Source of the DNA: Candidatus Woesebacteria bacterium GW2011_GWB1_39_12
Lineage (GTDB): Bacteria > Patescibacteriota > Microgenomatia > UBA8517
Assembly (NCBI GenBank): GCA_000993405.1
Contig: LBWB01000009.1
Coordinates: 77,848-141,847 of the forward strand
DNA: 64,000 nucleotides
Direction of reading: 5' to 3'
The translations under genes were made by a program, and so were the position numbers. Shown here piece by piece: positions 30,027 to 61,156 of this stretch; position 1 is the first letter of the stretch, and every line of letters begins with the position of its first letter. Under the pieces are notes generated by a model. It was not told where the DNA came from. It was given only the letters and a program-made list of their open reading frames with translations, and searched no databases.

Positions 30027-30072
30027 TGTCTATACATTATAATGGTTCAGTCCTTCGGCTTCACTCAGGATT

Positions 30073-32754: not shown

Positions 32755-32763
32755 TTTTTCTCT

Positions 32764-38413: not shown

Positions 38414-38420
38414 AAATAAA

Positions 38421-43062: not shown

Positions 43063-43267
43063 AGCCGAGATAGCTCAGGGGTAGACCTGCCCGCCGAAGT
43101 CGTGCCGTCGTAGCTCAGTTGGTAGAGCGTGCCCTTGGTAAGGGCAAGGTCACCGGTCCAATTCCGGTCGACGGCTCCAAATACGTAGGCGGGGCACTTT
43201 CTTGCCTGCCTTTGGCAGGCGACTTCGTCTAAAGAAAGGGGTCGTGGGTTCAATTCCCACTCTCGGC
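43063..43267 (+). ncRNA. split tRNA-like shell (degenerate tRNA-Thr-like 5' and 3' portions) enclosing tRNA-Thr(GGU)
   Basis: 5' piece gccgaga-ta-gctcaggggtagacc-tgccc is 43063-43091. The 3' piece runs gggca, a 42-nt hairpin insert, gggtc, gtggg-ttcaatt-cccac, tctcggc, t (43191-43267). The acceptor has 7/7 perfect complementarity and the anticodon-stem halves tgccc/gggca match those of the inner tRNA. Confidence 0.4.
43103..43178 (+). tRNA. tRNA-Thr (anticodon GGU), CCA encoded
   Basis: Perfect cloverleaf: gccgtcg/cgacggc, tagctcagttggtagagc, tgccc-ttggtaa-gggca, aggtc, accgg-tccaatt-ccggt, t, cca. Confidence 0.9.
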
Positions 43268-43320
43268 TCAAATCAGTTAGATTGTTGCATGGTTACATTA
43301 ATAAAAGTAAAATACCTACT

Positions 43321-43506: not shown

Positions 43507-43581
43507 GTTCACCTATAAAGCCAAGTCTGATATTTGATATATACAAAAATGCTATCATTAGTATGATATATCGAACTATTA

Positions 43582-43983
43582 ATGACACATTTATCTCGCA
43601 GAATTTTGCAGTCAAAAACCGAAAAGGAATTAAAAAGCATCTTAAAAGAGGCGCTTCTTAATTTAAAATTCAGTGAGTACGATAAAGTATTTTACTCTCT
43701 AATCACCAAGACCGAGGAGCTAATGATAGCTAAAAGACTTGGAGTAATATTAATGCTTTCAGAGGGTGCAACTTACGAGGAAATCTCAGAATCTTTAAAA
43801 TTAACAAACGAAACTATATCAAGAGTTCACTTTGAAATGAATTCTCATCCTGCAACTTACAAATTTTTGTTAAATAAATTAAAACCATGGAAAAGAAGGA
43901 AACTCTTAAAAGAGATTCTCGGAGATCTTGGATTTAGAGCTTTAAAACTTACCGCCAAACATGTGGGTGGTCGAATTTATTAA
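43582..43983 (+). CDS. TrpR-like (YerC/YecD family) helix-turn-helix regulator
   Basis: 133 aa; …RLGVILMLSEGATYEEISESLKLTNETISRV… HTH; the gene is bracketed by a 20-bp palindrome and a half-palindrome. Confidence 0.55.
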   Translation: MTHLSRRILQSKTEKELKSILKEALLNLKFSEYDKVFYSLITKTEELMIAKRLGVILMLSEGATYEEISESLKLTNETISRVHFEMNSHPATYKFLLNKLKPWKRRKLLKEILGDLGFRALKLTAKHVGGRIY

Positions 43984-44142
43984 CTTATTTTCTCTTTCGA
44001 TCTCTAAAGGTTGCTTAGTTCGATATATCGAACTATAAGGCAGGAAATTTACAGTAAAGTTCGAAGGTGTTAAAATATACAAGTTAAGGATTACAATTTA
44101 GGACTGTCGGTTAATACTAAACCATAGTTCTTTAAACAATAT

Positions 44143-44213
44143 AGGGTCGTGGTGAAATGGTATCACGGCGGTCTCCAAAACCGCTTTTCCGGGTTCGAAT
44201 CCTGGCGACCCTG
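44143..44213 (+). tRNA. tRNA-Trp (anticodon CCA)
   Basis: agggtcg/cgaccct acceptor, gtga-aatggta-tcac D-arm, gcggt-ctccaaa-accgc anticodon arm, ccggg-ttcgaat-cctgg T-arm, discriminator g; CCA not encoded. Confidence 0.85.
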
Positions 44214-44395
44214 CAAAACAAAAGTGACTCTCTTGTGGAGTCTATTTTTGTTTTGTGGCCAGGATGAGAAATTTACACTGAGCGAGTGAAACGAGTCGAA
44301 TGTGAATCCTGGCGACCCTGCCAATTCTTTGAAATTCCAAGTGTGTCAAGCTATTCCACTCCAGGTGTGGTTTAAACAAGTGATATTATTAATTT

Positions 44396-44722
44396 ATGCT
44401 TAGAGAATACGATCGAAAAATCAAAAGGCTTCTTGATTCAAAACGTGCAGACACGGATTGGAAAGAAATCTTTAAAACCCATCAAGAAATGGTATCAATT
44501 ATCCGGCACGAAAGACTTTTACATCTTCTGGTTATGCTGACTGTGGCAATTATAGTAACAATTGTATTTGCTTTAATTATTGTGTTTGAAAAAACCATTC
44601 TTCTTTTATTGGGTATTCCGCTTTTTGCATTGTTTATCGGATATATCATCCACTACAGGTTTTTGGAAAATACAACTCAAAACTGGCACAAATTGTCCAT
44701 GGAAATAAAGAAAAATATTTAA
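44396..44722 (+). CDS. hypothetical membrane protein
   Basis: 108 aa; two hydrophobic helices. Confidence 0.4.
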   Translation: MLREYDRKIKRLLDSKRADTDWKEIFKTHQEMVSIIRHERLLHLLVMLTVAIIVTIVFALIIVFEKTILLLLGIPLFALFIGYIIHYRFLENTTQNWHKLSMEIKKNI

Positions 44723-44830
44723 CTATTGTGACCTCTTGCAAATATTCTTAAGATATTTCAATTTGGTTGAAACAGTCCTTCGATCCCACTCGGGATAAAT
44801 CCACTAATCCCTGCAAAATAGCCTCTGGCA

Positions 44831-45301
44831 TTATAAATTTATAAACTGAAGATATTTCTCTAATATAGGATACATTCCTACCATTAAATCTTTATATCCC
44901 AAAAGTACTTCAGGACTCTCCCACTTGTATTTATCATGCCCTTCTAAGTTTAAATCAATTTTTGAGTTTGAAGTTAACGTTGTTTCCGCTAACCAAACAT
45001 CGTAATTAATTTGCTTGCGGACTACGTAAAAATTAAAGGTACCCAGATGAGTTAAGTTTTCCTGATTAAACTCTAACCCTATTTCCTGCCTGGTTTTTGA
45101 AACTGCTGTATCTATAAAGGACGCCCCCTCAGCAACCTTACCACCTGGCAAACCCCAACGATTACCTTCTGGAACATTGCCTTTCCGATGCAGCACTAGC
45201 AATTGTCCGCCCTTATTTACTAACAGTATTCCTGCTGCTCTAATAGCCATATAAATGAAGATTAGCATTTGAATAAGCATAATTAAAGAAGCTCCTGACA
45301 A
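44831..45301 (-). CDS. NUDIX-like hydrolase
   Basis: 156 aa; …GLPGGKVAEGASFIDTAVSKTRQEIGLE… approximates the Nudix box. Confidence 0.6.
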   Translation of the reverse strand: MSGASLIMLIQMLIFIYMAIRAAGILLVNKGGQLLVLHRKGNVPEGNRWGLPGGKVAEGASFIDTAVSKTRQEIGLEFNQENLTHLGTFNFYVVRKQINYDVWLAETTLTSNSKIDLNLEGHDKYKWESPEVLLGYKDLMVGMYPILEKYLQFINL

Positions 45302-45338
45302 AGTTTACTAGCCCCTGCCGCGTAACCTCGGTGGTATA

Positions 45339-45881
45339 ATGCGTTTGATGGAAATTGTTGATTTATCACAATCTCTCTTTGATGGAATGGAAGTTTATCC
45401 AGGCGACCCAGAGGTTCGCATAAAACAAATTCATACCTTAAACAAAGAAGGTTGGAGGCTTAGATATCTCCAATTCTCTACCCATATCGGTACTCACGCA
45501 GACGGCCTTTCTCATATGGACAAAAAGGGCACAACAATTGACAAGATGCCTATCAGTAAATTCATAGGTAAGACAGTTCTTGTTAAACCAAGCGACAATT
45601 TTCCTCAGGGAATAGGACTAGCGTTTAGGGATAATATATTGGGTTTAGATATTTTCAAAAAGATAGTAGATGCGCGACCTTTGTTTGTTATCGCTGGAGA
45701 TAAATGTGACTTTGAACTTGAGATGGAAAGAAAACTCCTGCAAGCAGGAGTTCTTACAATGGCTGGGCTGGTGAATATGAATAAATTACCAAGAAACAAG
45801 CCGTTTACGTTTTATGGTGTCCCTCTAAATATTAAAAATGGTGATGGCTCTCCAATTAGGGCTTTTGCAGTGTTGGGCTAG
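45339..45881 (+). CDS. cyclase-family protein (kynurenine formamidase/arylformamidase-like)
   Basis: 180 aa; …QFSTHIGTHADGLSHM… is the HxGTHxDxPxH-type cyclase-family motif. Confidence 0.65.
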   Translation: MRLMEIVDLSQSLFDGMEVYPGDPEVRIKQIHTLNKEGWRLRYLQFSTHIGTHADGLSHMDKKGTTIDKMPISKFIGKTVLVKPSDNFPQGIGLAFRDNILGLDIFKKIVDARPLFVIAGDKCDFELEMERKLLQAGVLTMAGLVNMNKLPRNKPFTFYGVPLNIKNGDGSPIRAFAVLG

Positions 45882-46063
45882 TGTAAAAATAGTTCCCTAC
45901 AAAATTCACTAGCCCCTGCTTAAAATTCCCTAAATTCCCAATGTGTCAGATGTTTGATTCTGAGCGGTGGACTTTTCGCTCAGACTCGAAGAGCTATTTA
46001 ACTCCTGGAATTGTTTAGTGTGGCTAAATCAATGTACTTTAAGAATTTCGTAAATATTTAGAC

Positions 46064-46432
46064 TTACTTAGAAATACAGTCAAACTCATAGCCGCCACTA
46101 TCGGATATTGGTACTTCAACCTCTTTACAGTTTTCAATCGAAGCATCGCACATCTTAATTTTTTGACCGGTATAAAACTCCCTTTTATTAACAACTTGAC
46201 ATCCTGCTTTTACACATTCTTTTGCTTCTGTTTCGCCTTCCATATAACCAGCACTGCCTGAAAATTGGCTACAATATCTATCGTTATTCATACTGACCCG
46301 GTAAAGTAAAAATACTAGCAATATAACGAAAATTAAAACCACTGGCAAATAAACTTTTTTCATAGTAAATAAACTACCGAGGGTTAATAACCCACGGTAT
46401 TCTCGCCCTTTGGGCTCAACAAGTTTGTTCAC
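46064..46432 (-). CDS. small secreted Cys-rich protein, hypothetical
   Basis: 122 aa; N-terminal signal/TM; 6+ Cys in the mature part. Confidence 0.4.
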   Translation of the reverse strand: MNKLVEPKGREYRGLLTLGSLFTMKKVYLPVVLIFVILLVFLLYRVSMNNDRYCSQFSGSAGYMEGETEAKECVKAGCQVVNKREFYTGQKIKMCDASIENCKEVEVPISDSGGYEFDCISK

Positions 46433-46637
46433 TCCTCCCTTTCATCCGTGGACTAAAAGTCCACAGTTTTCAGGGAGTTTGAATAAATTATATATCATCC
46501 CTAAACCATCTCAAATGAGCTTATTTCATACCAATGGTTTGACCATGCTCACGATTTGTAATTGCTCGTTTATCCTGAGACATCTTGAAAGAAAGTCCAG
46601 CGCATAATCTCTGCTATTAAGTGTTATTATTTAAGAG

Positions 46638-46997
46638 GTGTTATTAAAATTTACTAAGTATCTGATTATTTTTTACTTCATCTTTATGTCGCTGTTTTTT
46701 TTATTCGGTTTTGCCGTTGTTATTGATTCGGGGAGCAAAAATTTATATCTTACCTTCAGTTTGTCAATCTTTGGAATATTGTTTTTGTTATCGGGAGTAA
46801 AGCTCCTAAAAAACTCTCAAAAGGCTTACTTATTTTCTATCACTACACTTACTCTCGAATTTATTATTACCGCTGCTTACAGGTTCTTTCTTGTTACAAA
46901 CCACAAACTTCAGATAATCGATTTAAATAATCTACTGCTGTTTGGAATACCGTTAATTCTTATAATAGCGATCAGCAATAAATCTGAGTATCGCTAA
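46638..46997 (+). CDS. hypothetical membrane protein
   Basis: 119 aa; 3-4 predicted TM helices. Confidence 0.4.
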   Translation: MLLKFTKYLIIFYFIFMSLFFLFGFAVVIDSGSKNLYLTFSLSIFGILFLLSGVKLLKNSQKAYLFSITTLTLEFIITAAYRFFLVTNHKLQIIDLNNLLLFGIPLILIIAISNKSEYR

Positions 46998-47031
46998 GTT
47001 TAAACATGACACACTTGGGGTATTCACGAAA

Positions 47032-48273
47032 CTATTCCCACTTCTTTATTTCCTCCTGAGGAAGTTTTAACTTTTTGGGAGTAGTAAGTAAAAGAACTGC
47101 CGAAACGACAACTACGGTAATACCAACCGCACTAAATGTAAGTCTTTCTCCAATAGTACTCGCTATAAACCCCGCCCAGGCAGGACCGATTATATAGGCA
47201 ATACTTATTGTCGAGCGTGATAGGCCAATGAGATGCCTTCTCTCTCTACCCATCCTGGCAACGATATCCGAATAAACCCCGTCGGTCAGAGGAAAAGATA
47301 CTGCCAAAAGAGTACTTGAAACAAATACAAATAAAAGCTGAAAAAAGATGGCATCAGTTAGTCCAAGCATTGCCAAGAAAATTCCGGAAAAAAACAAAAA
47401 TTTCTCCGCCAGGCGTTTCTTACCTTCAAAAACTTGCCACTTGGCGACAACAAACCCAACAAAAAGTGAGGGTAACGTATAAAGAGGTAAAAACATCCCT
47501 CCCCACCAACTTCTTTCTGATAAAGTATGACTCCAAACCGCGCCAGTCGTCCAAAAAGTCGCATCAACCAGCCCCATAAAAATACTCATAATTACAATTG
47601 GCCAGACGTGAGAAAAAAGTACTTTCCAATGGGCCAGTTCCCGAATCAAATTTACTTCGTGAACATCAATTTCAATCGGTCTTTTATGCTTTTCCCGAGC
47701 CAACATCAAAAAGACTAATCCCAAAAACGTAAAGAGAATTGCAAAATAGGCTGGCGTTCTGTCCCCTCTTGCCAAGAGTAACCCGCCGATAATGGGACCC
47801 AAAAAGTAGGCCAAGCTTCTGAATATGGACATTACTCCCCAAGCGGCCGAATGAAGTCTTAAAGGAGTTGAATCGGCCACAAATTGCTGTTCACCAAAGC
47901 CCAAAAGTTCGTAATAGATTCCCCAAACAGCCATAGCAAGAAGAAAAATAACAAGATAAGGCGCCGCGGTAGCACCAAGAAGAATTGCTGAAAACAAAAA
48001 ACTTGATAGAATCCCCAGAAGTATCAGTCTTTTAACTGTAAAACCTCTCAGAATCTGGGGAAAAATAAGATCAGCCCCGAATCCAACGACTGACGAAAAA
48101 CTGATAACAAGACCCATTAAAAAAGAACTTTGCAAAGAATCTTGGATAAAATTGGGAACCCAGAAGGATAAAATTGCATCTGCCAATAGAATCAGAAATA
48201 AAATCATACCTAAGGTCAGAACTTTCGACCAAACTTCGTCTTTTAATATCCTCGGAAAGGTTTTAACAAACAT
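47032..48273 (-). CDS. MFS-type transporter
   Basis: 413 aa; about 12 hydrophobic helices and the conserved loop …LARGDRTPAYF… typical of the major facilitator superfamily. Confidence 0.65.
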   Translation of the reverse strand: MFVKTFPRILKDEVWSKVLTLGMILFLILLADAILSFWVPNFIQDSLQSSFLMGLVISFSSVVGFGADLIFPQILRGFTVKRLILLGILSSFLFSAILLGATAAPYLVIFLLAMAVWGIYYELLGFGEQQFVADSTPLRLHSAAWGVMSIFRSLAYFLGPIIGGLLLARGDRTPAYFAILFTFLGLVFLMLAREKHKRPIEIDVHEVNLIRELAHWKVLFSHVWPIVIMSIFMGLVDATFWTTGAVWSHTLSERSWWGGMFLPLYTLPSLFVGFVVAKWQVFEGKKRLAEKFLFFSGIFLAMLGLTDAIFFQLLFVFVSSTLLAVSFPLTDGVYSDIVARMGRERRHLIGLSRSTISIAYIIGPAWAGFIASTIGERLTFSAVGITVVVVSAVLLLTTPKKLKLPQEEIKKWE

Positions 48274-48381
48274 ATCTAAAGTATCGGATAAACATATAAA
48301 ATAGTAAACAGGAATAGATTTGTTCCATTCTTTTTACTTCTTTACTTACTCTTCTACTTAAACTTATACTTAAACTAACGT

Positions 48382-49788
48382 ATGGATCCTGTCCAAAATT
48401 CAAACAATAACCTACGAGATTCACCAGCCCAAACAGAAACACCAAAACCTGCCTTCGTAACCCAGGAAATTTCCTCTTCTGACCAGGTTCAGACTTCCAC
48501 TACTGAAGAACCTTTACAGTCTTCTCAAATTGAGACTACTCCCCAACCCGGACCCCCGCAAACTATACTTTCCCCGGCTCCATCATCCCAAGTATCTACT
48601 GAATCTCAGGATTTTCCAAAGTCGGGAAAAAGGAGAATCATACCTTTTGTCGCCGGATTATTATTATTAATATTTTTCATCCTAATAATCACCGGCGGTG
48701 CTACCTATGCCGTTGCTTATGAAAAAATAAAACTTAATAAGAATCCCGAACTTCAGAAAAAAGTAGCCTATTTTGTAATGTCACTTCCCTTCACGCCAAA
48801 AACGCCGAAGTTTTTACTGGCAAAAACCGGCATGGCTCATCAGGATGTAACCAAGGAATCATTTGATATTTCGCTTGCAATAGACTCAAAAGACTTTGTA
48901 AGTTCACTCGGTCTAAGCGGACTGGATATAGAAGCCAAGGGGAATGTTGACTATTCTGACCCTAAAAACGTAAAACTTGTTCTTGACACTTCTATTACCA
49001 AAGACTTCAATTTTGAATTGAGAAAAAAAGATAAATTTCTACACTTTAAGATAAATAAGCTTCCTTCGGCACTTCTGGCACTTCTTGGACTAAAGGTTGA
49101 GGAATTTGCACCGATTCTTGACAAATGGGTCTCATATGATACAACTCCTTTGGATACCGAAGCCAGAAGATCAATTCAGGATGAAGAGATAGACCCTTTG
49201 AGTGAAGAGTATTTAGACGAAACCTTTGAGAAATACATTGACGATGAAGTGCTTTCTAAAATGAGGCTCGTTGAGGTCACCGAAGAAGGCAGGGAAATGT
49301 ACAAAATAACGCTTGATGCTGACCCGGCATTAATTGATCATTTGGGTCAAAAGCTTGAAGAAGAGAGGAAAAAGACTGGTGGAGCTTATCTTGACCAATC
49401 AAGCGAGTCCGTCAAACTTTCGGATATGATAAAAGCCCTTAAATGGGAAATCTATATAGATAAAGATAGTTACTACACAAGAAAACTAATAGTCACTGCC
49501 GATCTTGAAACCGACAAAATGGATTATGGCAGCATATTCACGGGCACTTCTGGTTCACCAAGCGAGAAAAGTCAAGCAAAAATTGCATTCGCCGCAAAAT
49601 TTGACGACTTTGGAGAAGAAGTAGTTGTTCAGGAACCAGAAGACGCAATTACCTTCGAAGAATTTACAAATATTGTTTCAGAGATATTGAAACAGGTTTA
49701 CGGAGAATTCTTCAATTCACAATACTCCTCCGGACTGGATAATCCGGACATACCGGATGCCGAACTCGAACTTCCCGACAATCTTTAA
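48382..49788 (+). CDS. hypothetical membrane-anchored protein with Pro/Gln-rich N-terminus
   Basis: 468 aa; low-complexity N-terminus, single TM, then a large extracytoplasmic domain of unknown family. Confidence 0.45.
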   Translation: MDPVQNSNNNLRDSPAQTETPKPAFVTQEISSSDQVQTSTTEEPLQSSQIETTPQPGPPQTILSPAPSSQVSTESQDFPKSGKRRIIPFVAGLLLLIFFILIITGGATYAVAYEKIKLNKNPELQKKVAYFVMSLPFTPKTPKFLLAKTGMAHQDVTKESFDISLAIDSKDFVSSLGLSGLDIEAKGNVDYSDPKNVKLVLDTSITKDFNFELRKKDKFLHFKINKLPSALLALLGLKVEEFAPILDKWVSYDTTPLDTEARRSIQDEEIDPLSEEYLDETFEKYIDDEVLSKMRLVEVTEEGREMYKITLDADPALIDHLGQKLEEERKKTGGAYLDQSSESVKLSDMIKALKWEIYIDKDSYYTRKLIVTADLETDKMDYGSIFTGTSGSPSEKSQAKIAFAAKFDDFGEEVVVQEPEDAITFEEFTNIVSEILKQVYGEFFNSQYSSGLDNPDIPDAELELPDNL

Positions 49789-49837
49789 ATCAGTTTTTGA
49801 GTTGACTTTGAAAAAAATCTGACGTACTATCACGCCA

Positions 49838-50671
49838 ATGGAAGAGCAGGTAATTACGCCCCAGGAAAAAGTCACAGAAGTAAAAGAATTGAGTTCCGGA
49901 AAAAAAGTCTTGATAGTTTTGGCGGGAATTCTTCTCCTAGCCGGAGTCGGTGCAGGATCGTATTTTTTAGGAAATAAGGGTAAATCACAAGATACATCAA
50001 TTTTGTCTCCAACCCCCGCTGATTTAATTTCCGAAACTCCTACAACCACACCAACTCCTGAAATAAATATTTCAGGAACAATCTCTCCTACAAAAAAACC
50101 AACAGTAACTCCAAAACCCACTCTTACGCCAACACCCGTGGTCAAACAAAAAACCCTGTCTTCAAACACTTCTCTTGACGGATTTCAATCTAGTAACGGA
50201 GGCGGAAATAAGACTCTTGAAATTCGGGCCGGAAGAAATGTGAATTTGGTTACGCGGGGATTCGTAAGTTTTGACCTTTCTGAAATTCCTGCCGGAGCGG
50301 TAATTAAAGAGGTAAATCTCAGGCTCTACCAGGCAAAAATAATCGGAAATCCTTACGGAGTCGGAGGCTCGCTTAAAATCGATCATCTAAACTTCGGAGA
50401 TTCTCTTGATAACCCGGATTACGGCTTGGCCGCGCTTTCATCAAGTTTTATAACATTAACCAGTAATAACGTAATAGAATGGAAGGACGCTATAGTAACC
50501 GACCAAGTCAAAGATGATCTTGCCAACGCACGCTCGCGCAGCCAGTTCAGAATCCATTTCCAGACCGAAAACACCGGAGGCGACGTAACCGGCGATTTCG
50601 CCTACTTCGAGGCAGCGGAAAATAATATGGCTACAGGCAACTCTCCTCAATTGGTTGTTAAGTACTATTAA
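49838..50671 (+). CDS. hypothetical membrane-anchored protein with Thr/Pro linker and C-terminal beta-rich domain
   Basis: 277 aa; TM, PTPADLISETPTTTPTPE…TPKPTLTPTP linker, unknown C-terminal domain. Confidence 0.45.
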   Translation: MEEQVITPQEKVTEVKELSSGKKVLIVLAGILLLAGVGAGSYFLGNKGKSQDTSILSPTPADLISETPTTTPTPEINISGTISPTKKPTVTPKPTLTPTPVVKQKTLSSNTSLDGFQSSNGGGNKTLEIRAGRNVNLVTRGFVSFDLSEIPAGAVIKEVNLRLYQAKIIGNPYGVGGSLKIDHLNFGDSLDNPDYGLAALSSSFITLTSNNVIEWKDAIVTDQVKDDLANARSRSQFRIHFQTENTGGDVTGDFAYFEAAENNMATGNSPQLVVKYY

Positions 50672-50738
50672 ATAAGAACCATCATTTGTTTCCTCGTGCT
50701 TCCCGGGTGTATAATTCCCGAAATTTACCCCAATTAAC

Positions 50739-52685
50739 ATGACTCACGAATTAAATTCCGGTCAACGAACACGTTGGTGGATACAAAATCCACGTCGGAC
50801 TTCGGCCGAACCTCAAATACAACCCCCCGTTTATGAAAAACCTTTAACTATCAGAGAATGGTTAAATCAAGAACCTGATGGAAAAGTGGCTCAATCTTAT
50901 AAACTTGCAGAAAAAATCCATGAAGGTCAGGTAAGATTCTCCGGCGAACCCTATATATCTCATCCCGAAGCTGTTACTGACATAATAAACACCGAATTCT
51001 ATAATGGCGCTCTCCCTGACGTGGATTTAATCTGTGCCGCTCTTCTTCACGATACTCTTGAGGATACGAATGACGAACAAAAACTTCTTATTTACGAGAA
51101 AATAAAAAATGATTTTGGGGAAGGTGTAGCCTACTTGGTAGAAAGTGTATCTCAATTCAGATCAGATGGAAGTGAACAATCAGACACCGAATATCTTCAA
51201 AAACAGGCTGCTCATGGAATTCCGGATCCCCGCGTATTTGTTCTCAAACTGGCCGATAGACTTCACAATATGCGTACCCTCCAATTCGTACCCGAGGAAA
51301 AACAAATTCCTAAAGCAAAGGAAACCCACATTTATGCAGGTCTGGCCGAAAGACTCGGAATGTGGGCAGTAAAAACAGAACTTGAAGATCTAGCTTTCAA
51401 ATATGAATCACCCGATCTTTATCAATCAATCAAAGAAGAGGTGGATTCCGATCCACGCCTTACTGCTGATTTTATCAGTAAAGTTGAAAACAGCTTAAAT
51501 CAGGTATTAAGAAATAACGAGGGCACGAAAGGTTCAATAAGTGTAAGAAAAAATGGCTTATGGGCATTATATGATAAGAGAATCAGGTTGGCGCAGGCAG
51601 GAAAAGGAAGATTGGGTACTTTTTCGCATATAAATGACTTAGTTAGCTTTCGCATAGTATGTGATACTGTTAATTCGAATAATCTTTTAGAACTGTATAG
51701 CATACTCGGCGCCATCCATAACCATCCAAAATTTAATGAGCCTTTAGATGAAACCAGATTGGACGAATTTTTAGCCAAACCTAAAGGTAACAAATACTCA
51801 GCACTCCAAACAACAATCGACTATCCCGAAGGATCATTTGAAATAGCAATAACAACGAAAGAAAGAGAAGAATTTAACAATTGGGGAATAATGTATTTAT
51901 TAAGGCGTGGTCAATTACAGGAAGCCACTCCCCTATATGAATTGAAAATAGTATTTGACGAAGAAGGTAAGGCTATATTTCTAAATAAAGATGCAACCGG
52001 AGTGGATTTTGTTTACGCAAAAAACCCCTGGCTGGGTGCTCAAGCAATAAGTCTAATCGTAAATGAAGTCCCTACAAAAATCGGACAATTCGTTCCAAAT
52101 GCATCAAGTATTAAAGTAGTAGCATCAGAAGATATACGAAGAGCTCCACCTGCACATTTTCTGGAACATTGTAGCCCTGAAACTCAAAAAATTATTGAAT
52201 CTCAATACGCACTTTTGGGTAGAGATTTTGACGTCGTCAGAGGTAGCGAATTACTTGAACCTATACTTTCCCGTATAGGTCTTCTCGTTGTTTCTGACTG
52301 GCCTCCTCTTGAAAGAATACTCCTTACTAAATTCGACGCACAAGATCTCCATGATTTATACCTCAAAATTGCAAGAACAGGTGAACATCTGTTAAATGAA
52401 ATAAGTCAAGTATTTCAGGAAGAAGGAATCAATAAAGAAGCTCTGAGTTTAACCACGATCAGGCTTCGGGGAAAAAACAGCCCTCACGTCCTAAGAGATG
52501 TGTCAAATCTCATTGACGATCTTAAGGTAGACACAAGACACATCTTGACAAGTAAACCGATAGCCTCAGAAGAAGGAGATTACGAGCTGAGAATTGTAAT
52601 AAATAATCCTTCTCAAGAAATCCTTAACACGCTTAATAAGAAACTAGGTAACGACCAGAGGTTTGATCAGGTAACTATAGTCTGA
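50739..52685 (+). CDS. RelA/SpoT-homologue (RSH) (p)ppGpp synthetase/hydrolase
   Basis: 648 aa; HD motif …ICAALLHDTLEDT…, …ADRLHNMRTL…; synthetase-domain motif …DEFLAKPKGNKYSALQTTI… (cf. DYIAxPKxNGYxSLHT). Confidence 0.8.
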   Translation: MTHELNSGQRTRWWIQNPRRTSAEPQIQPPVYEKPLTIREWLNQEPDGKVAQSYKLAEKIHEGQVRFSGEPYISHPEAVTDIINTEFYNGALPDVDLICAALLHDTLEDTNDEQKLLIYEKIKNDFGEGVAYLVESVSQFRSDGSEQSDTEYLQKQAAHGIPDPRVFVLKLADRLHNMRTLQFVPEEKQIPKAKETHIYAGLAERLGMWAVKTELEDLAFKYESPDLYQSIKEEVDSDPRLTADFISKVENSLNQVLRNNEGTKGSISVRKNGLWALYDKRIRLAQAGKGRLGTFSHINDLVSFRIVCDTVNSNNLLELYSILGAIHNHPKFNEPLDETRLDEFLAKPKGNKYSALQTTIDYPEGSFEIAITTKEREEFNNWGIMYLLRRGQLQEATPLYELKIVFDEEGKAIFLNKDATGVDFVYAKNPWLGAQAISLIVNEVPTKIGQFVPNASSIKVVASEDIRRAPPAHFLEHCSPETQKIIESQYALLGRDFDVVRGSELLEPILSRIGLLVVSDWPPLERILLTKFDAQDLHDLYLKIARTGEHLLNEISQVFQEEGINKEALSLTTIRLRGKNSPHVLRDVSNLIDDLKVDTRHILTSKPIASEEGDYELRIVINNPSQEILNTLNKKLGNDQRFDQVTIV

Positions 52686-53084
52686 AAAAAACCTTCTTGT
52701 AATGCGAGATCTATAAAGACCGTCGCACAATATTTATCTTTTCCCAGTTTGTCCACAAGGTCTTCCACTGTGCCTAGTCTTTAAAACTATCTTTCATACT
52801 AACTCCATCAAAAAACCTCCGTTTTAGAAGGTTTGTAAGTAAAAAAACAAATCACCGATTAGTATAGGAGGTACATGATTATCTGCCTAACACAAATTAA
52901 TTTCATACAGGGTTTACATTTTAACTGTCAATTTCGAAAATTACAAATAAATATCCTATAACGTTGATTTTTGGGGAAAAATTTGATATACTTTGGATTC
53001 CCAAAGTCGCAAGACCTAAGGATTGTATGGGAAACCATACAAGGGTTGGCACCCCTAGCACATTGACATACAGGAGATGATCAA

Positions 53085-53564
53085 ATGACTACAACCGCAA
53101 GGTTAGGTGGACTGCTTTTCGCGGTCCTGTTACTCGCGGCGCTCGCTTTGATGATGAGCCCCGCAAACCCAGCTGCACTGCAGCTGGAAATTAGCATACC
53201 CGGTGGCGCTGCGCCGGAACTGTCTGCTGCAGAGCAGGCGATGAAAAACGCCTTGGAACTTCTCCCAGGCGCCCAAATCAGCGTTCCTGCGCTCTTTTCG
53301 CCAAACGGTGGCTCAGTAACCTTGAACATGAACGGCATGTCGCTTCAGACAAACTGGAGCCCTGTGGACGAAGGGTGTGATTATCACGGGTTCATTAATG
53401 GAAAGAGAATCCCCCTTCTTCACTCGGAGGATCCTTGCGATCCTGCTGATTTCCTCGCGTGGCTGGTTGCCTACGCTTACAAGATCACCGAGGTGATCGG
53501 TAAGGAAAGGGGCGATTCCATAGTTCGTGCAGTTGTCGAGCTGATTCAGCCGTTTGTCCACTAA
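53085..53564 (+). CDS. secreted hypothetical protein encoded by a conspicuously GC-rich, foreign-looking segment
   Basis: 159 aa with signal peptide (…LGGLLFAVLLLAALALMMSPANPAA…). The coding DNA is visibly far more GC-rich than every other gene in the window. An RBS-like aggaga lies upstream. Overlapping minus-strand ORFs are probably GC artefacts. Confidence 0.5.
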   Translation: MTTTARLGGLLFAVLLLAALALMMSPANPAALQLEISIPGGAAPELSAAEQAMKNALELLPGAQISVPALFSPNGGSVTLNMNGMSLQTNWSPVDEGCDYHGFINGKRIPLLHSEDPCDPADFLAWLVAYAYKITEVIGKERGDSIVRAVVELIQPFVH

Positions 53565-53833
53565 GTTCTAAGCTAGGGTGCCAACCCGAAGGGGAGGGCA
53601 AGATTTGTTACGGGTATGGAGTGCGCATGCGCGTACTCAACAAAAATGTTAGCTCAAAGCTAACCAACATAACACATACCCAACACATTTCTTCCCTCCC
53701 CTAGTTCTTCTTTTAATAAATTCAGACAATTTAACTCGTTTATTAAAATAATTAAATTATGTATTTTTATTGCTAACCGAGAGTAAAATATAGGATATTA
53801 TGAATACAGAAATTTCCAGGCGCAATTTTTTAA

Positions 53834-54568
53834 ATGAAAAAATTACCGAACTTCTCCTATGAAAAACGACTTTGGAAAAAAGGCTATAAATTTGTCGCCG
53901 GCTGCGACGAGGTGGGAAGAGGATGTTTTGCAGGACCTGTAGTAGCAGCATGCAACGTATTCATGCCGCAAAATCCAAAAAACAAATTCCAAATTCCAAA
54001 AAATATAAAAATTGATGACTCGAAGAAGTTATCAGAAACCCAAAGAAATATAGCAGCAAAGTGGATTAAAGATAATTGTTTAACCTGGGGAATCGGCATA
54101 GGAAGAGTATCGGAAATAAATAGGTTAGGAATGACAAAAGCAACATCTTCGGCTTTTCGTCGGGCTATTACTAACGCTAATAAAAGGATGGCTTCCCGAG
54201 TAGATTACTTACTCATAGATGCATTTTATATACCATACACAAGGGGCTTACGGATGCCACTAAAAACTGAGAAACTAAAGAATAAAAGAATCAAGGAACT
54301 TAAATATTCAAAATTATCAGGACGACAGTTGGCAATAATAAACGGTGATGAAAAATCTCTTTCAATAGCCGCTGCCTCAATAATTGCCAAGGTTTATAGA
54401 GACAAGTTAATGAAAAACTTAAGTAAAAGACCCAAATTTAAGAAATATGGGTGGGACAAAAACAAAGGTTATGGAACTCGGCAGCATCGAGAAGCAATTT
54501 TAAAATACGGCTCAACAAAATATCACAGAAAAAAATTTGTAGAAACTTATCTTTCCAAAAATAATTAA
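53834..54568 (+). CDS. rnhB: ribonuclease HII
   Basis: 244 aa; …AGCDEVGRGCFAGPVV… catalytic DEVGRG motif; contains an in-frame ccaaattccaaa word repeat. Confidence 0.85.
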   Translation: MKKLPNFSYEKRLWKKGYKFVAGCDEVGRGCFAGPVVAACNVFMPQNPKNKFQIPKNIKIDDSKKLSETQRNIAAKWIKDNCLTWGIGIGRVSEINRLGMTKATSSAFRRAITNANKRMASRVDYLLIDAFYIPYTRGLRMPLKTEKLKNKRIKELKYSKLSGRQLAIINGDEKSLSIAAASIIAKVYRDKLMKNLSKRPKFKKYGWDKNKGYGTRQHREAILKYGSTKYHRKKFVETYLSKNN

Positions 54569-54762
54569 TAGTTTCTTTTTTTCTCCAGTTCTATTTGGAA
54601 CTTGACTCGGGCTTTTTGTTCCTTTCTTTTTTCAGATGGAGGCTTAAAGCGAGCGCGTTCCCTGGCTTCCTGCAGAAGACCTGAGTCCAAAACCTCTTTC
54701 TTGAATCTGGCGATCAACCTGTCTTCGGATTCTCCCCTTTTTTTGACCACGACGACCATCAA
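54565..54762 (-). CDS. rpsU: 30S ribosomal protein S21
   Basis: 65 aa; …LIARFKKEVLDSGLLQEARERARFKPPSEKRK… S21 pattern. Confidence 0.7.
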   Translation of the reverse strand: MMVVVVKKRGESEDRLIARFKKEVLDSGLLQEARERARFKPPSEKRKEQKARVKFQIELEKKRNY

Positions 54763-54890
54763 AAATCGCCTCCTCTCCCTCCGGGCCGAAGGTCAGAAAA
54801 ACCTGAGGCCCTGCTTGTATATAATAATTCATCATACAAATCACCACGCCTATTGTAGCAGAAAAAGCTATAATATGGTAGAATTTCCCC

Positions 54891-55076
54891 GTGAAGGCTT
54901 TATTGGAATATCTAAAAGGCGTTCGAAGCGAACTCTCTAAGGTTACCTGGCCCAAAAGAGATGAGGTCATGAGGTTAACTTTGACTGTTTTTATCATTTC
55001 TGGGATAATTGGAATCTACCTTGGCGTCCTAGATTTCGCCCTCACAAAGTTACTTGAGGTTTTAATTTCAAGCTAG
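54891..55076 (+). CDS. secE: preprotein translocase subunit SecE
   Basis: 61 aa; …ELSKVTWP… followed by a single TM; conserved position before nusG. Confidence 0.85.
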   Translation: MKALLEYLKGVRSELSKVTWPKRDEVMRLTLTVFIISGIIGIYLGVLDFALTKLLEVLISS

Positions 55077-55080
55077 ATCT

Positions 55081-55731
55081 ATGTCCGACGATAACACCCA
55101 AACCATTGCATCTCAAAATTCTGCCTTGGAAACCCCTGCAATAAGCGAGCGAGGAACCGGAAAGAAAAAAATTCCCGGCCATATCGTAATTAACACAAAC
55201 GATAATAAAGACGCAAACTGGTTTGTTGTTCATACAACAAGCGGCCATGAAGTAAGAGTTGCCGAAACCTTGCGTCAAAGGGTCGAAACCATGGGACTTC
55301 AGGACAATATATATGAACTTCTCGTTCCTACTCAGGACAGAGTCGTGATAAGAGGCGGTAAGAAGGCAACGGTCAAGGAAAAGATTTTCCCCGGTTATCT
55401 TCTTATCAAAATGGTAATGAACGATCCTACATGGCTTGCGGTGAGAACTACTCCGGGCATCACAGGTTTCGTGGGCGCCGGCAAAACTCCTACTCCTCTA
55501 TCGGAGACTGAAGTAACAAACATCCAAAAATTCGTTTCAGCTCCTGCAAAGCGCTTTAAGACAAGGTTTACGACAGGTGAAGCAGTAAAAATTACTGACG
55601 GACCTTTTTCGGATTTTCTTGGAACCATTAACGAAATCGATGAAGAAAAAGGGAAAGTAAAAGTTTTAGTCTCAATCTTCGGAAGAGAAACACCTGTTGA
55701 GTTAGACCTTTTGCAAATAGCAAAAGTTTAA
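55081..55731 (+). CDS. nusG: transcription termination/antitermination factor NusG (with ~45-aa N-terminal extension)
   Basis: 216 aa; NGN domain …WFVVHTTSGHE…; KOW …GEAVKITDGPFSDFLGTINEID…. Confidence 0.9.
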   Translation: MSDDNTQTIASQNSALETPAISERGTGKKKIPGHIVINTNDNKDANWFVVHTTSGHEVRVAETLRQRVETMGLQDNIYELLVPTQDRVVIRGGKKATVKEKIFPGYLLIKMVMNDPTWLAVRTTPGITGFVGAGKTPTPLSETEVTNIQKFVSAPAKRFKTRFTTGEAVKITDGPFSDFLGTINEIDEEKGKVKVLVSIFGRETPVELDLLQIAKV

Positions 55732-55744
55732 TATACAATAGATA

Positions 55745-55842
55745 CTACCTCGTTTAAGCTTGACTTAAATCGAGGAAGACAGACCGCCGAAAGGTTTGTC
55801 GAAGACAAAAAAACAAAAATCTTCGATTTTTTCTTCGGCGGA
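55745..55842 (+). promoter_or_regulatory. structured nusG-rplK intergenic leader (two hairpins; candidate L11-operon leader/attenuator)
   Basis: Hairpin cctcgtttaag…cttaaatcgagg; then nested hairpin ccgccgaa…tcgaaga-caaaaaaacaaaaa-tcttcga-tttttt…ttcggcgg. Confidence 0.4.
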
Positions 55843-55879
55843 ATTTCTAAACTAATCACCAATAACCAATCACTAACTT

Positions 55880-56308
55880 ATGGCATCTAAAAAGATAAAA
55901 ACCATTGTTAAAGTCAACTTGAAAGCAGGAGAGGCAACTCCGGCTCCACCCTTGGGTCCGGTATTGGGACAGCACGGCGTCGCCATAATGGAATTCGTAA
56001 AAGCCTACAACGAGCGTACTACCGAAATGAAGGGTGAAACAGTGCCTGCAGTAATAACGATTTACGAGGACAGGAGTTTTGATTTTGAGATAAAGAAAGC
56101 ACCCGTTGCCGATATGATCAAAAAGGCATTGGGCATTGAAAAAGGCTCAGGAACAACTCCGAGAGAAATGGTTGGAATGCTTACTAAAGCACAAGTTGAG
56201 AAAATCGCTAAGGAAAAAATGGATGATTTTAATACCCAGGATCTGGAAGAAGCAAGAAAGATTGTGTCAGGAACAGCAAGAAGTATGGGAGTAAAAGTGG
56301 AAGATTAA
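55880..56308 (+). CDS. rplK: 50S ribosomal protein L11
   Basis: 142 aa; …KAGEATPAPPLGPVLGQHGVAIMEFVKAYN… typical L11. Confidence 0.95.
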   Translation: MASKKIKTIVKVNLKAGEATPAPPLGPVLGQHGVAIMEFVKAYNERTTEMKGETVPAVITIYEDRSFDFEIKKAPVADMIKKALGIEKGSGTTPREMVGMLTKAQVEKIAKEKMDDFNTQDLEEARKIVSGTARSMGVKVED

Positions 56309-56312
56309 TTTT

Positions 56313-57128
56313 ATGGGAAAAACAAAAACAGCATTCGTCGGTGAGGTTGAAGAAAAAAAACTAAGCGGCGAAGAAAAATACAAAGAAAGACAAAAGAAAA
56401 AAGAATCCGTTCAAAAAGAGGAAAAAGTTCATGTTGCCGGATTAAAGGGGGGGCAGAGGATAAAAGTTGTGGAGGCAGAAACATTACCCACAGAGGTCGT
56501 AGAGGAATCCACAGAAGCCGGAGAAAAGAAAAAAGTCATCAAGAAAAAAATTCGTGGTAAAAATTATCTTCAAGTTAAATCAAAAATAGACAGAAACAAG
56601 TTCTATTCAGTCAACGATGCACTAAAACTGGTTAAAGAAACATCTTACTCAAAATTCAACGGAACTTTTGAAATGCATATTGTAGTCAAAAAGGTAGGCT
56701 TATCGGAAAATGTCACCCTCCCCCATTTCGAAGGAAAAGCAAAAAGAGTTGAAGTTGCCGATGATAAAACCATTGAAAAACTCAAAAAAGGCAAAATTGA
56801 TTTTGATGTACTTTTGGCAACCCCCGACATGATGCCGAAATTGGTTCCATTTGCCAAAATTCTGGGTCCTAAAGGACTCATGCCAAATCCAAAGAATGGA
56901 ACTATTATCAAAGGTAACAAAGACGTTGAGAAATTTTCAGGGAACTCTTTGACAATAAAAACCGAAAAAGACGCGCCGGTTATTCATACAGTCGTAGGCA
57001 AAGTCAGCCAGCCGGAAAAAGAGTTGGAAGAAAATATTGAAAGCGTCTTAAATGCAGTCAATAAAAAACAGATTGTCAAAGCCTATCTCAAATCCACAAT
57101 GTCGCCATCTGTAAAATTATCTGTCTAA
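56313..57128 (+). CDS. rplA: 50S ribosomal protein L1 (with ~50-aa Lys/Glu-rich N-terminal extension)
   Basis: 271 aa; L1 core …FDVLLATPDMMPKLVPFAKILGPKGLMPNPK…. Confidence 0.9.
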   Translation: MGKTKTAFVGEVEEKKLSGEEKYKERQKKKESVQKEEKVHVAGLKGGQRIKVVEAETLPTEVVEESTEAGEKKKVIKKKIRGKNYLQVKSKIDRNKFYSVNDALKLVKETSYSKFNGTFEMHIVVKKVGLSENVTLPHFEGKAKRVEVADDKTIEKLKKGKIDFDVLLATPDMMPKLVPFAKILGPKGLMPNPKNGTIIKGNKDVEKFSGNSLTIKTEKDAPVIHTVVGKVSQPEKELEENIESVLNAVNKKQIVKAYLKSTMSPSVKLSV

Positions 57129-58266: not shown

Positions 58267-58278
58267 TTTTTCACCTTT

Positions 58279-59097
58279 CTAATTTATAATTGACTGATTT
58301 TTCAAGAAAGTTAATGACTCCATGTATTTTGGTTCGCTGAGATACTTATTGCATTTTTCAAAATATAAATCCGGAAAATCAAATCGGTCATGACTATAAG
58401 CTCCGAAAGCCCAAAACCGGGAAGTATACTCAACAGCTTTTCTATTTATATTTTTCAGTAATCCTCCAGTAAATCTATATTTGTTTCTGCTTATTTTTAT
58501 TACCAAATTTAATTTAATTAAAGTATTTGGCATCGTTTCTCCCATAATTCTCCAAATATCCTGAAATTTGGGTGAAACATAGTGCTTGAAAAAATACGAA
58601 TGATAATGCGGGTACAAAAAGGAGTAAGACTGAAACACACTGGCCACAATATTATTCCTATTTAAATTTTGAATATTCTTATTTTTACTAAGATACACCA
58701 TAAAGGGGGTTATTAATTCTAAAGAGACTGAAAGTATTTCCTTATCATCCATAAGATTTCCTATCGAAATAAACGGGTTTAAAGTCTTACCGCAGAAATA
58801 CCCACCATATTTTCCTTCTCGACCATCTTTTACGAACTCTTTCTTGGGTACGATATAAAGAGTTACAGGATGGTTTTTATAAGAGGCGCTAATTCTTCTG
58901 GGATTACCGTTTGAATTAGTAATCAACATAAAATCCAAATCACTGCCCTCTTTTAACTGATTTGTGATCAGACTGCCATAGACTATCCAGACATGATCTT
59001 TTTTATAACTAGATTCTAGATTTAGCCTCTCAGATAGATACTTGGTTGACTCGACAGCTAGCTTATAATTTTTCTCTGAAACAATAGATTTATACAT
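58279..59097 (-). CDS. nucleotidyltransferase-domain protein (Pol-beta superfamily)
   Basis: 272 aa; …VYGSLITNQLKEGSDLDFMLI… matches the GSx(n)DxD minimal nucleotidyltransferase motif. Confidence 0.6.
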   Translation of the reverse strand: MYKSIVSEKNYKLAVESTKYLSERLNLESSYKKDHVWIVYGSLITNQLKEGSDLDFMLITNSNGNPRRISASYKNHPVTLYIVPKKEFVKDGREGKYGGYFCGKTLNPFISIGNLMDDKEILSVSLELITPFMVYLSKNKNIQNLNRNNIVASVFQSYSFLYPHYHSYFFKHYVSPKFQDIWRIMGETMPNTLIKLNLVIKISRNKYRFTGGLLKNINRKAVEYTSRFWAFGAYSHDRFDFPDLYFEKCNKYLSEPKYMESLTFLKNQSIIN

Positions 59098-61075: not shown

Positions 61076-61156
61076 GGGGATTATAAGATAAGAGTGACTA
61101 GTCTCTCTTTGACTCATCACTATCATCCTCTAATCCTTGAATCCTAGATACCAAAG

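Follow-up and report, generated by a model that had tools for sequence, protein, structure and literature searches.

The rpmG-secE interval of Woesebacteria as a probable lineage-wide gene-turnover hot spot with a putative repeat-bounded cassette array beside tRNA-Trp

Integron recombination sites (attC) are imperfect inverted repeats that fold into a hairpin (R''-L''/L'-R') and carry a GTTRRRY / RYYYAAC core; a cluster of attC sites without an integrase is known as a CALIN. The pdif sites of Acinetobacter plasmids are 28-bp, partly palindromic sequences of XerC-spacer-XerD type that alternate in orientation. With respect to ribosomal gene order, an ancient tufB-secE cluster has been reconstructed for Proteobacteria and Firmicutes, and insertions between the operons of this cluster have been documented, which are usually native and not horizontally acquired (PMC8046335). 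Here we analyzed a stretch of 64,000 nucleotides from Candidatus Woesebacteria bacterium GW2011_GWB1_39_12 (contig LBWB01000009.1, positions 77,848 to 141,847; hereafter the window), in which 11.4 kb separate the ribosomal protein gene rpmG from secE. A preliminary description had read these 11 kb as an accessory island lodged in a core operon. As a single landed block this island does not hold, but the idea survives as a hot spot of gene turnover common to the lineage, with a cassette array near tRNA-Trp. Taken as a whole, the interval is probably best explained as an old fluid gap filled by the cassette array, by relocated native genes and by one foreign-looking module.

The window keeps the canonical order rpmG, tRNA-Trp, secE, nusG, rplK, rplA, rplJ, rplL, all on the plus strand, without the members being contiguous: gaps of 11.4 kb and 3.4 kb separate rpmG from secE and rplA from rplJ. 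The interval given in the preliminary description, 43507-54890, corresponds exactly to what separates the rpmG stop (43506) from the secE start (54891), while the contiguity of rplK-rplA-rplJ-rplL that it assumed is broken by three minus-strand genes at 57205-60202. For comparison we used 80 relatives' loci found through NusG (68-88% identical), one genome per species and nearly all labelled Woesebacteria, Microgenomates or Patescibacteria, onto which the proteins and tRNAs of the window were mapped; single loci are cited by L numbers, and the 10-kb flank sets the upper limit of a measurable gap. In none of the 80 relatives is rpmG adjacent to secE. The gap ranges from 1.6 to 9.5 kb (median 6.3 kb, within the 10-kb flank) in the 31 loci holding both genes, tRNA-Trp lies between the two in 30 of these 31, and rpmG is missing altogether from 20 of the 48 loci with more than 9 kb of sequence upstream of secE. 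The backbone common to the lineage can be written, for its 5' part, as tRNA-Thr(UGU), tRNA-Tyr, (PGA_cap gene), tRNA-Thr(GGU), rpmG, (TrpR-like), tRNA-Trp, (variable), and for its 3' part as rpsU, rnhB, (one variable gene), secE-nusG, (variable), rplK-rplA, (variable), rplJ-rplL. Three pairs are tight in the relatives, with median gaps of 37 nt (secE-nusG), 30 nt (rplK-rplA) and 43 nt (rplJ-rplL); the nusG|rplK junction has a median of 540 nt and a maximum of 3.9 kb, and the rplA|rplJ junction spans 9 to 6058 nt (median 705 nt). In E. coli these pairs are separate transcription units, so that the breaks fall between units and not inside an operon.

Since the spacer from rpmG/tRNA-Trp to secE is open in all relatives examined, the 11.4 kb found here would be the local state of an old interval and not the recent insertion of one foreign island, and we consider it very probable that the rpmG-secE interval is a fluid gap throughout the lineage. 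An ancient tRNA(Thr-Tyr-Thr)-rpmG-tRNA-Trp-secE-nusG-rplKA-rplJL cluster would then survive only as tight pairs, between which the spacers gain and lose genes. The preliminary description had named a gene content and order shared with relatives as the result that would speak against an insertion, and to a large extent this is what the relatives show, the gap being found in all of them and its content and order being partly common. What appears as an island in a core operon is in this sense the normal architecture of a class of the Candidate Phyla Radiation (CPR). Gene insertion between operons of this cluster is already documented and in that respect ordinary: as in the cluster erosion described before, small native gene groups lie between operon pairs with no sign of distant transfer, and linkage is lost progressively (PMC8046335). 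The present locus differs in that the gap is universal in a whole CPR class, that tufB and tRNA-Gly are absent from the cluster, that three junctions are open at once, and that one junction holds a repeat-bounded cassette array, for which that study describes no counterpart. The premise that rpmG is immediately followed by secE in most bacteria also has to be qualified, as tRNA-Trp usually lies in between and rpmG is not located there in E. coli (PMC8046335).

The part of the interval proximal to tRNA-Trp appears to be a cassette array bounded by repeats, with direct evidence of gain, loss and reordering in relatives. In the window, tRNA-Trp(CCA) (44143-44214, plus strand; ARAGORN, Rfam 62.9 bits) is the landmark where the variable stretch starts. 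It is followed by a terminator-like hairpin (44226-44242), a spacer of 86 nt, the tRNA-end copy c1, a membrane protein gene, c2, a Nudix gene on the minus strand, c3, a cyclase gene and c4; single genes thereby alternate with these copies between 44.3 and 45.9 kb. Copy c1 (44304-44324, plus strand) is the duplicate of the tRNA-Trp 3' end that the preliminary description had pointed out, identical at 20 of 21 positions. c2 (44803-44838, plus strand) combines a degenerate repeat (ACTAATCCCTGC) with a well-kept right extension (AAAATAGCCTC...TATAAA). c3 (45285-45318, plus strand) agrees with the array consensus at 33 of 34 positions and is followed by TGGTATAAT, with TATAAT at 45334-45339, and c4 (45886-45919, plus strand; 28 of 34) is the last repeat of the window array. 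The first cassette encodes a small membrane protein of 108 aa (44396-44722, plus strand) without a homolog in the 80 relatives' loci, and the second a Nudix hydrolase (44831-45301, minus strand; PF00293, E = 4e-13), for which gene callers place the start at about 45250-45280. The third contains the PF04199 'cyclase', which is arylformamidase-like with N-terminal similarity only (45339-45881, plus strand) and is bounded exactly by the 34-nt direct repeat c3/c4. Its likely start, also chosen by gene callers (177 aa), is the ATG at 45348, which lies 30 nt after c3 and 8 nt after TGGTATAAT, a spacing from which a leaderless mRNA would follow. The right flank of c1 resembles that of c4, the observed score being reached in 9 of 2000 shuffles, as expected if both stem from the original sequence 3' of tRNA-Trp. 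Among the 35 relatives with tRNA-Trp, only L084 has a duplicate of the tRNA 3' end; with the window and L084 as the only cases among 36 tRNA-Trp loci, we rejected such copies as a general scar of integration. The five genes that follow c4, from hyp122 to hyp277, are not bounded by repeats.

The consensus of 155 repeat copies, AAAGAAGTTCCTGACAAAGTTTACTAGCCCCTGC, comprises 34 nt, most of them with an information content near 2 bits. On its right there is a weaker AAnnTAGCCTCAnAT-n-TATAAT, and on its left, about 4 nt away, ATTATA, which is TATAAT on the other strand. The 8 nt at its right end, GCCCCTGC, coincide with the tRNA-Trp 3' end, and the other 26 nt are conserved sequence unrelated to the tRNA. 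At no fewer than ten array-bearing loci, the tRNA-Trp 3' end (...GCCCCTGC) is directly followed by the right extension of the repeat (AAAATAGCCTCAGATGATATAAT...ATG), which suggests that the tRNA end acts as the first repeat and makes the shared 8 nt a candidate crossover segment. Several other identities of the repeat were considered and set aside. It is not a tRNA fragment, since by inspection only its last 8 nt match tRNA-Trp; inspection also reveals neither the hairpin of an attC site nor the Xer-type symmetry of a dif site; the spacing from GGAAC to TATAAT is wrong for an extracytoplasmic function (ECF) promoter; and a search of viral contigs gave no matches, which argues against a viral origin.

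A search of the GTDB species loci with a 28-mer consensus, allowing up to 7 mismatches, returned 14 sites in 7 of the 80 loci plus the window and none in shuffled sequences. All of these matches are plus-strand sites located between tRNA-Trp and nusG. The 12-mer core of the repeat, ACTAGCCCCTGC, has multiple plus-strand copies also in L021 and L024; in L024, six repeat copies are spaced 361-905 nt apart with single small open reading frames (ORFs) between them, one of which encodes a Nudix protein. Metagenome contigs scanned with an exact 19-mer yielded 71 stretches, in which copies were then counted with mismatches allowed, giving 212 copies with a median spacing of 600 nt. All 212 share one orientation, which is also that of the tRNA upstream; no inverted copy is among them. 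The arrays are located in the order rpmG, tRNA-Trp, array, rpsU, rnhB, secE, nusG (e.g. L110, L118, L126, L148). Where a tRNA gene is in view upstream (n = 21), it is tRNA-Trp in 14 cases, tRNA-His in 4 (L090, L096, L155, L159), tRNA-Leu in 2 and tRNA-Arg, at a distance of 5.9 kb, in 1; the two tRNA-Leu arrays (L098, L116) begin with a 3' fragment of tRNA-Trp. The geometry is that of tRNA targeting: arrays begin at the tRNA whose 3' end is matched by the junction repeat. At the opposite end, the last repeat of L102, L123 and L126, three different contigs, lies exactly 163 nt before the start of rpsU; this gene may be driven from, or fixed next to, the terminal repeat.

Median ORF length in the arrays is 165 aa, with an even division between the strands (77 plus, 77 minus). 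Pfam assignment over 150 cassette ORFs, considered here for the 25 most frequent families, indicates a content dominated by small enzymes of nucleotide house-cleaning and salvage. NUDIX is the commonest family (17), followed by cytidine/dCMP deaminase, 2H / 2'-5' RNA-ligase-like and HD (5 each), AAA_18 kinase-like (4), HD_3 and MazG (3 each), and Ham1, histidine phosphatase, RidA, isochorismatase and CYTH (2 each); methyltransferases, GNAT acetyltransferases and alpha/beta hydrolases are also found. Plus-strand ORFs after a repeat show a modal start 29-32 nt past the repeat end in about half of the cases, i.e. 7-10 nt after TATAAT, a distance that fits leaderless mRNAs, and minus-strand ORFs to the left of a repeat prefer start distances of 14-37 nt. 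The repeat unit would accordingly supply leaderless promoters, with the TATAAT box of its right flank placed for the next gene.

Cassettes are found in changing company. Fifteen cassette types recur with different neighbours; cassette C2, for example, is preceded by C5 in L107, by C1 in L135 and by an unrelated cassette in L146. In pairwise comparisons, the homologous block sets in 4-11 nt to the left of one repeat and extends 27-47 nt past the first base of the following one, with no homology farther on, and blocks that break at repeats include pairs 98-99% identical. L148 and L154 have one cassette 99% identical and a tRNA-Trp region 99% identical, whereas the neighbouring cassettes differ; L119 and L146 have two cassettes in common (99% and 95%), which are direct neighbours in L119, whereas L146 has an extra cassette between them. 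Overall, repeats coincide with 50 of the 158 internal left ends and 56 of the 148 internal right ends of homology blocks (32-38%), compared with expected values of 1.4% and 2.8%. In their co-oriented repeats and mostly single-gene cassettes that are gained, lost and reordered at these repeats, the arrays resemble those of integrons. For relatives these changes within the repeats are shown by the comparisons; for the window they would apply by extension.

We therefore regard it as probable that the repeats bound a mobile cassette array; that its mechanism is site-specific recombination is a more tentative proposal, a little weaker than an even choice. Cassettes would be added, lost and reordered through recombination within the co-oriented 34-nt repeats directly after tRNA-Trp, possibly moving as circles or as segments. 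We favor a site-specific recombinase encoded in trans, with the tRNA-Trp end as the primary site and GCCCCTGC as the overlap; recombination of RecA type between repeats would be the alternative. Such an array would be parked inside the ancestral rpmG-tRNA-Trp-secE ribosomal cluster.

Several observations weigh against this account. The array of the window itself is short and partly decayed: only c3 is near-perfect, c4 differs from the consensus at 6 positions, all that remains of c2 is the 3' 12-mer and the right extension, and c1 is a copy of the tRNA end and not of the repeat. The cassette finding therefore rests mainly on the data from relatives, the window's own example being small. The repeat occurs within 10 kb of nusG in only about 10 of the 80 species representatives, so that it explains only part of the variability seen across the lineage. 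In L090, L096 and L159 the first repeat lies 33-40 nt past tRNA-His and keeps only the 3' 19 nt of the core; a first junction that shares 19 nt and not 8 is at odds with one fixed point of crossover. Reordering was seen in metagenome assemblies, mostly on short contigs, in which chimeric joins at repeats are possible though unlikely. No tyrosine or serine integrase was found in the cassettes or their flanks, no recombinase recurs in the 150 flanking ORFs (as judged by the 25 most frequent Pfam families, mostly on short contigs), and a crude regular expression for tyrosine-recombinase motifs had no hit in ORFs of at least 150 aa from the 71 metagenome loci, the 80 genome loci and the window. 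As no recombinase was found beside the arrays, the mechanism of recombination rests on inference.

The main rival explanation is that the repeat serves as a shared bidirectional leaderless promoter or operator of a nucleotide house-cleaning regulon, with arrays built by local duplication, genes reordered by occasional unequal or circular RecA recombination between the repeats, and no dedicated system. Start codons at a fixed distance on both sides of the repeat, TATAAT-like boxes on both sides of the core, the left one being on the other strand, and the functional coherence of the cassette genes would all be expected of such a module, which also explains the lack of a recombinase near the arrays and the different length of core at tRNA-His and tRNA-Trp junctions. 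It leaves unexplained, however, why all 212 copies are co-oriented whatever the orientation of the genes (77 to 77), for which a promoter has no need, and why 34 consecutive positions stay near 2 bits across species whose flanks cannot be aligned, far beyond what -10 and -35 elements require. In addition, the core terminates in the sequence of the tRNA-Trp 3' end, where the arrays also start, which is the classical geometry of site-specific integration, and 34-60 nt are short for efficient RecA recombination. We consider this explanation rather unlikely, while giving it more weight than any other alternative to a mobile array.

Much less probable is that the reordering is an artefact of metagenome assembly across short repeats, the repeats being static intergenic elements. 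The reliance on short contigs and the known tendency of repeats to cause chimeric joins speak for it, but the conserved stretch (34 nt, or about 60 nt with the extension) is shorter than reads and the final k-mers of assemblers, and curated metagenome-assembled genomes of different species (L016, L024, L040) hold arrays of differing content. Species carry wholly different cassettes between the same repeats, which chimerism cannot produce. Six independent assemblies match the window over 43.0-57.2 kb with 99.85-99.98% identity and zero indels; the arrangement of the window is thus not an accident of assembly, and there is no polymorphism at the strain level.

Beyond the putatively mobile cassettes, the gap is filled by relocated native genes, a process apparent from synteny and composition. 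Behind c4, two small ORFs unique to this genome, hyp122 (minus strand) and a 119-aa membrane protein (plus strand), occupy 46064-46997 without bounding repeats. They are followed by an MFS transporter (47032-48273, minus strand; PF07690), the secreted hyp468 (48382-49788, plus strand), the secreted hyp277 with a DNRLRE/CBM96-like domain (49838-50671, plus strand; NF033679), a long RelA/SpoT homolog (RSH) with HD, RelA_SpoT ((p)ppGpp synthetase) and ACT domains (50739-52685, plus strand), a GC-rich ORF discussed below, rnhB (RNase HII; 53834-54568, plus strand) and, convergent with it, rpsU (S21; 54565-54762, minus strand). Of the window genes, rpsU is present at the site in 72 of the 80 relatives' loci, rnhB in 49, tRNA-Trp in 35 and hyp277 in 13; MFS recurs there in 13 relatives. 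hyp468 is found at the site in L010 and L017, in the order hyp468-hyp277-rpsU-rnhB, so that the closest relatives keep the hyp468-hyp277 pair just 5' of rpsU/rnhB, and RSH in L022 only, as hyp277-RSH-...-rpsU-rnhB. The rnhB/rpsU pair lies near secE across the lineage; it is flipped as a unit in the window and in L007, with rpsU(+)/rnhB(-) elsewhere, and this inversion explains the 'antisense rpsU' of the preliminary description.

The long RSH is a native Woesebacteria gene of varying position: its homologs, 36-47% identical, are labelled Woesebacteria, Microgenomates or Patescibacteria, and in other Woesebacteria it is sited elsewhere, e.g. adjoining argS. The gap of relatives contains genes of ordinary envelope and nucleotide functions, namely GDP-mannose 4,6-dehydratase (34 loci), cytidylyltransferase, a Ddl-like ligase, guanylate kinase and O-antigen ligase. 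One cytidylyltransferase family (F16) lies in the rpmG-secE gap of 16 relatives, and in the window 35 kb away (9730-10395); conversely, the homologs of three genes at 224-1894 of the window (0.2-1.9 kb) lie in the close relative L010 (1-2000) some 10 kb upstream of nusG. Such displaced homologs, RSH included, suggest that genes drift into and out of the spacer by rearrangement within the genome. MFS, the two secreted proteins, RSH and rnhB/rpsU would accordingly be chromosomal genes relocated by rearrangements specific to the lineage, including the rnhB-rpsU inversion. No homolog near nusG was found in the 80 relatives for the membrane protein, Nudix, cyclase, the two ORFs at 46.0-47.0 kb and the GC-rich ORF.

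The composition of the interval is native throughout, apart from 0.55 kb around the GC-rich ORF. Across 43.5-55 kb, the tetranucleotide distance from the window mean in 2-kb windows gives z = -1.3 to +0.6 and GC z-scores stay within +/-1.3; GC and GC at third codon positions (GC3) are ordinary for each gene with the sole exception of ORF 53085-53564. The interval had been called heterogeneous, which at the compositional level it is not, as |z| < 1.3 for the tetranucleotide distance at the 2-kb scale. That this genome acquired the roughly 11 kb between rpmG and secE horizontally, as a single island or integrative element, is scarcely credible: the functionally mixed gene content, a left edge with a tRNA gene and a duplicate of its 3' end, one GC-rich ORF and several ORFs without a homolog near nusG in the 80 relatives would suit it, but the composition is native, no integrase, transposase or phage-like protein was found among the interval ORFs (Pfam, NCBIfam, PHROGs), no flanking direct repeats bracket the 11 kb, with the tRNA-end duplicate at a distance of only 107 nt from its tRNA, synteny with relatives covers more than half of the interval (MFS, hyp468, hyp277, RSH, rnhB, rpsU), and the gap is already present in every relative. 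A weak third copy of the tRNA end (53429-53449, 16/21) was rejected as the right attachment site (attR) of a 9-kb island; it is near chance, lies inside an ORF, and the intervening genes are syntenic.

The part of the window that does deviate in composition lies outside the interval, at 26.3-38.5 kb (GC 0.44-0.47, tetranucleotide z about +2). It corresponds to a cohesin/dockerin cluster of eight genes for large proteins on the minus strand (26317-40683), one protein having a PQQ/BamB-like beta-propeller and one CarboxypepD_reg/fn3. The cluster separates tRNA-Tyr from the PGA_cap gene, which in relatives are 0-1 kb apart, and its ORFs have no homolog in the 80 relatives' loci.

The third process filling the gap would be the separate insertion of a small foreign module of 0.55 kb. 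This module (53043-53587) consists of inverted repeats (53043-53059 / 53571-53587, 16/17), whose 12-nt perfect core occurs nowhere else in the window, around an ORF for 159 aa (53085-53564, plus strand). The preliminary description was right in singling out this ORF as GC-rich: with 54% GC, as against about 39% for the window, and a GC3 of 59%, it is a true outlier (z = 3.4-3.9 relative to the other ORFs, 3.9 for GC3). A GGAG motif 8 nt 5' of the ATG, the N-terminus resembling a signal peptide and the GC pattern over codon positions favor a real gene. Among 5.8 billion protein clusters the protein matched only its own cluster at 90% identity (3 members, differing by one residue), its AlphaFold2 model (mean confidence score pLDDT 62) gave no fold match (best match E > 0.1), and searches returned no Rfam match even at E <= 10 and no phage or plasmid DNA match. 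A structured RNA was rejected as the cause of the GC-rich patch, because the fold z-scores of -5.6/-6.3 for the two strands come largely from the flanking inverted repeat and Rfam yields no match. The ORFan looks like a small, separately acquired foreign gene, and it is the only part of the interval where the term foreign is supported. Both the RSH protein and the GC-rich ORF are present on contigs from Rifle-type groundwater metagenomes.

The remaining features of the locus were taken from an ORF listing with Pfam/NCBIfam searches, with tRNAs called by ARAGORN and Rfam. The gene names proposed in the preliminary description were all borne out by Pfam/NCBIfam matches (L33, TrpR-like, Nudix, PF04199, MFS, RSH, RNase HII, S21, SecE, NusG, L11, L1). 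The left anchor, rpmG (L33; 43321-43506, plus strand), matches PF00471 with E = 5.5e-14 and has homologs 5' of tRNA-Trp in relatives. The right anchor (54891-57128) starts with secE (54891-55076, plus strand) and continues with nusG, a 148-nt gap and rplK-rplA, which ends at 57128. The second interruption, from rplA to rplJ, contains TrpRS, a nucleotidyltransferase-like and an APH-like gene on the minus strand (57205-60202), a content unique to this genome among the 80 relatives, before rplJ-rplL (60518-61630, plus strand; Pfam L10, L12). L1 (56313-57128) has 271 aa, of which only residues 152-265 match the Pfam L1 profile (78-198 of 198); an N-terminal extension of about 100 aa is rich in lysine and glutamate.

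Between rpmG and tRNA-Trp lies a gene for a TrpR-like helix-turn-helix protein of YerC/YecD type (43582-43983, plus strand), as in two relatives (L021, L083). The protein has a Trp_repressor domain (PF01371, E = 1.5e-10; 41.4 bits, above the cutoff of 27 bits), while TIGR02531, with 38.3 bits, stays below its cutoff of 42.2. The palindromes claimed around this gene exist as two 20-bp copies. O2 (44016-44035) is a perfect 20-mer, TAGTTCGATATATCGAACTA, and O1 (43559-43578; TAGTATGATATATCGAACTA) is a copy of it at 18 of 20 positions that overlaps a -10-like TATGAT just 5' of the start codon. A promoter-like site directed at tRNA-Trp (44048-44076; TTTACA-17-TAAAAT with TG) has its -35 element 13 nt downstream of O2. 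TrpR-like genes of relatives have their own, differing perfect palindromes: two in L017, on both sides of the gene, and others in L022, L018 and L083, between the gene and tRNA-Trp. Their joint occurrence supports, by position, an operator function. The protein likely regulates its own gene, for which the flanking palindromes would be the putative operators; control of tRNA-Trp by it is a hypothesis. TrpR-like paralogs in relatives are often found directly after rplL, each with its own perfect palindromes of 16-20 bp (L017 18115-18621; L022 14223-14240; L018 5969-5988; L083 860-879); in L017 one palindrome occurs on both sides of the gene, as in the window, and regulator and operator appear to co-vary. 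Four features linked to tryptophan fall within 15 kb, namely the TrpR-like gene, tRNA-Trp, the arylformamidase-like gene (a family of the kynurenine pathway) and TrpRS, which may be a coincidence.

Upstream of rpmG, tRNA-Thr(GGU) (43104-43179) is nested between two tRNA-like halves (43065-43272), a 5' acceptor with D arm (43065-43103) and a T arm with the complementary 3' acceptor (about 43240-43272). ARAGORN calls a tRNA from these halves only when the interior is artificially deleted, and the anticodons are then inconsistent; Rfam gives a weak match resembling tRNA-Sec (21 bits), and tRNA-Thr genes of relatives have 5' ends similar to the 5' half. A tRNA-Thr gene that was disrupted or duplicated may have given rise to the halves.

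Genomes of CPR bacteria are tiny, and few mobile elements have been recognised in them. If the proposed recombination holds true, a dedicated swapping of small nucleotide-cleaning and salvage enzymes anchored at a tRNA gene would be a new adaptive route of gene exchange for these bacteria, and a natural experiment in how integron-like systems evolve when attC hairpins are absent. The repeat also provides a promoter model that can be tested, with leaderless transcripts starting about 7 nt after a fixed TATAAT, and its 19-mer is a simple probe for arrays in metagenomes.

In the literature on CPR cassette arrays and integron-like systems we found no description of such a repeat-bounded array. The pdif modules of Acinetobacter plasmids, moved by XerC/D, are alike in joining small gene modules with short conserved sites for a recombinase presumably encoded elsewhere; the Woesebacteria repeat, in contrast, lacks their symmetry and is always direct. 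With tandem islands at tRNA sites, such as genomic islands whose att sites are repeated partial tRNAs or the tycheposons of Prochlorococcus, the locus shares a variable region that extends from a tRNA 3' end and a junction repeat that includes the tRNA end, with a partial 3' copy of tRNA-Trp in the window (44304-44324) and at the array starts of L098 and L116. Here, however, the units measure about 0.4-1 kb and contain a single small enzyme gene, integrase and mobility genes being absent, and only 8 nt of the repeat match the tRNA, whereas 26 nt are conserved and non-tRNA. The likeness to integrons lies in mostly single-gene cassettes, in co-oriented repeats resembling recombination sites, in gain, loss and reordering at these repeats, and in a high repeat identity within the lineage, as in the Vibrio cholerae repeats (VCRs) of Vibrio; as in a CALIN, no adjacent integrase was found. 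Unlike attC, the 34-nt consensus shows by inspection neither an internal inverted repeat nor a GTTRRRY core, cassette genes in Woesebacteria face either way equally often and appear to have their own leaderless promoter in the repeat unit, and the anchor of the array is a tRNA 3' end instead of attI/intI, with no IntI found and in a CPR host. Some Woesebacteria may thus possess, as we tentatively suggest, a cassette system that is integron-like yet mechanistically distinct, in which single genes with leaderless promoters, most of them for nucleotide-sanitising or salvage enzymes, would be captured and reordered at a 34-bp non-hairpin site by a recombinase encoded in trans.

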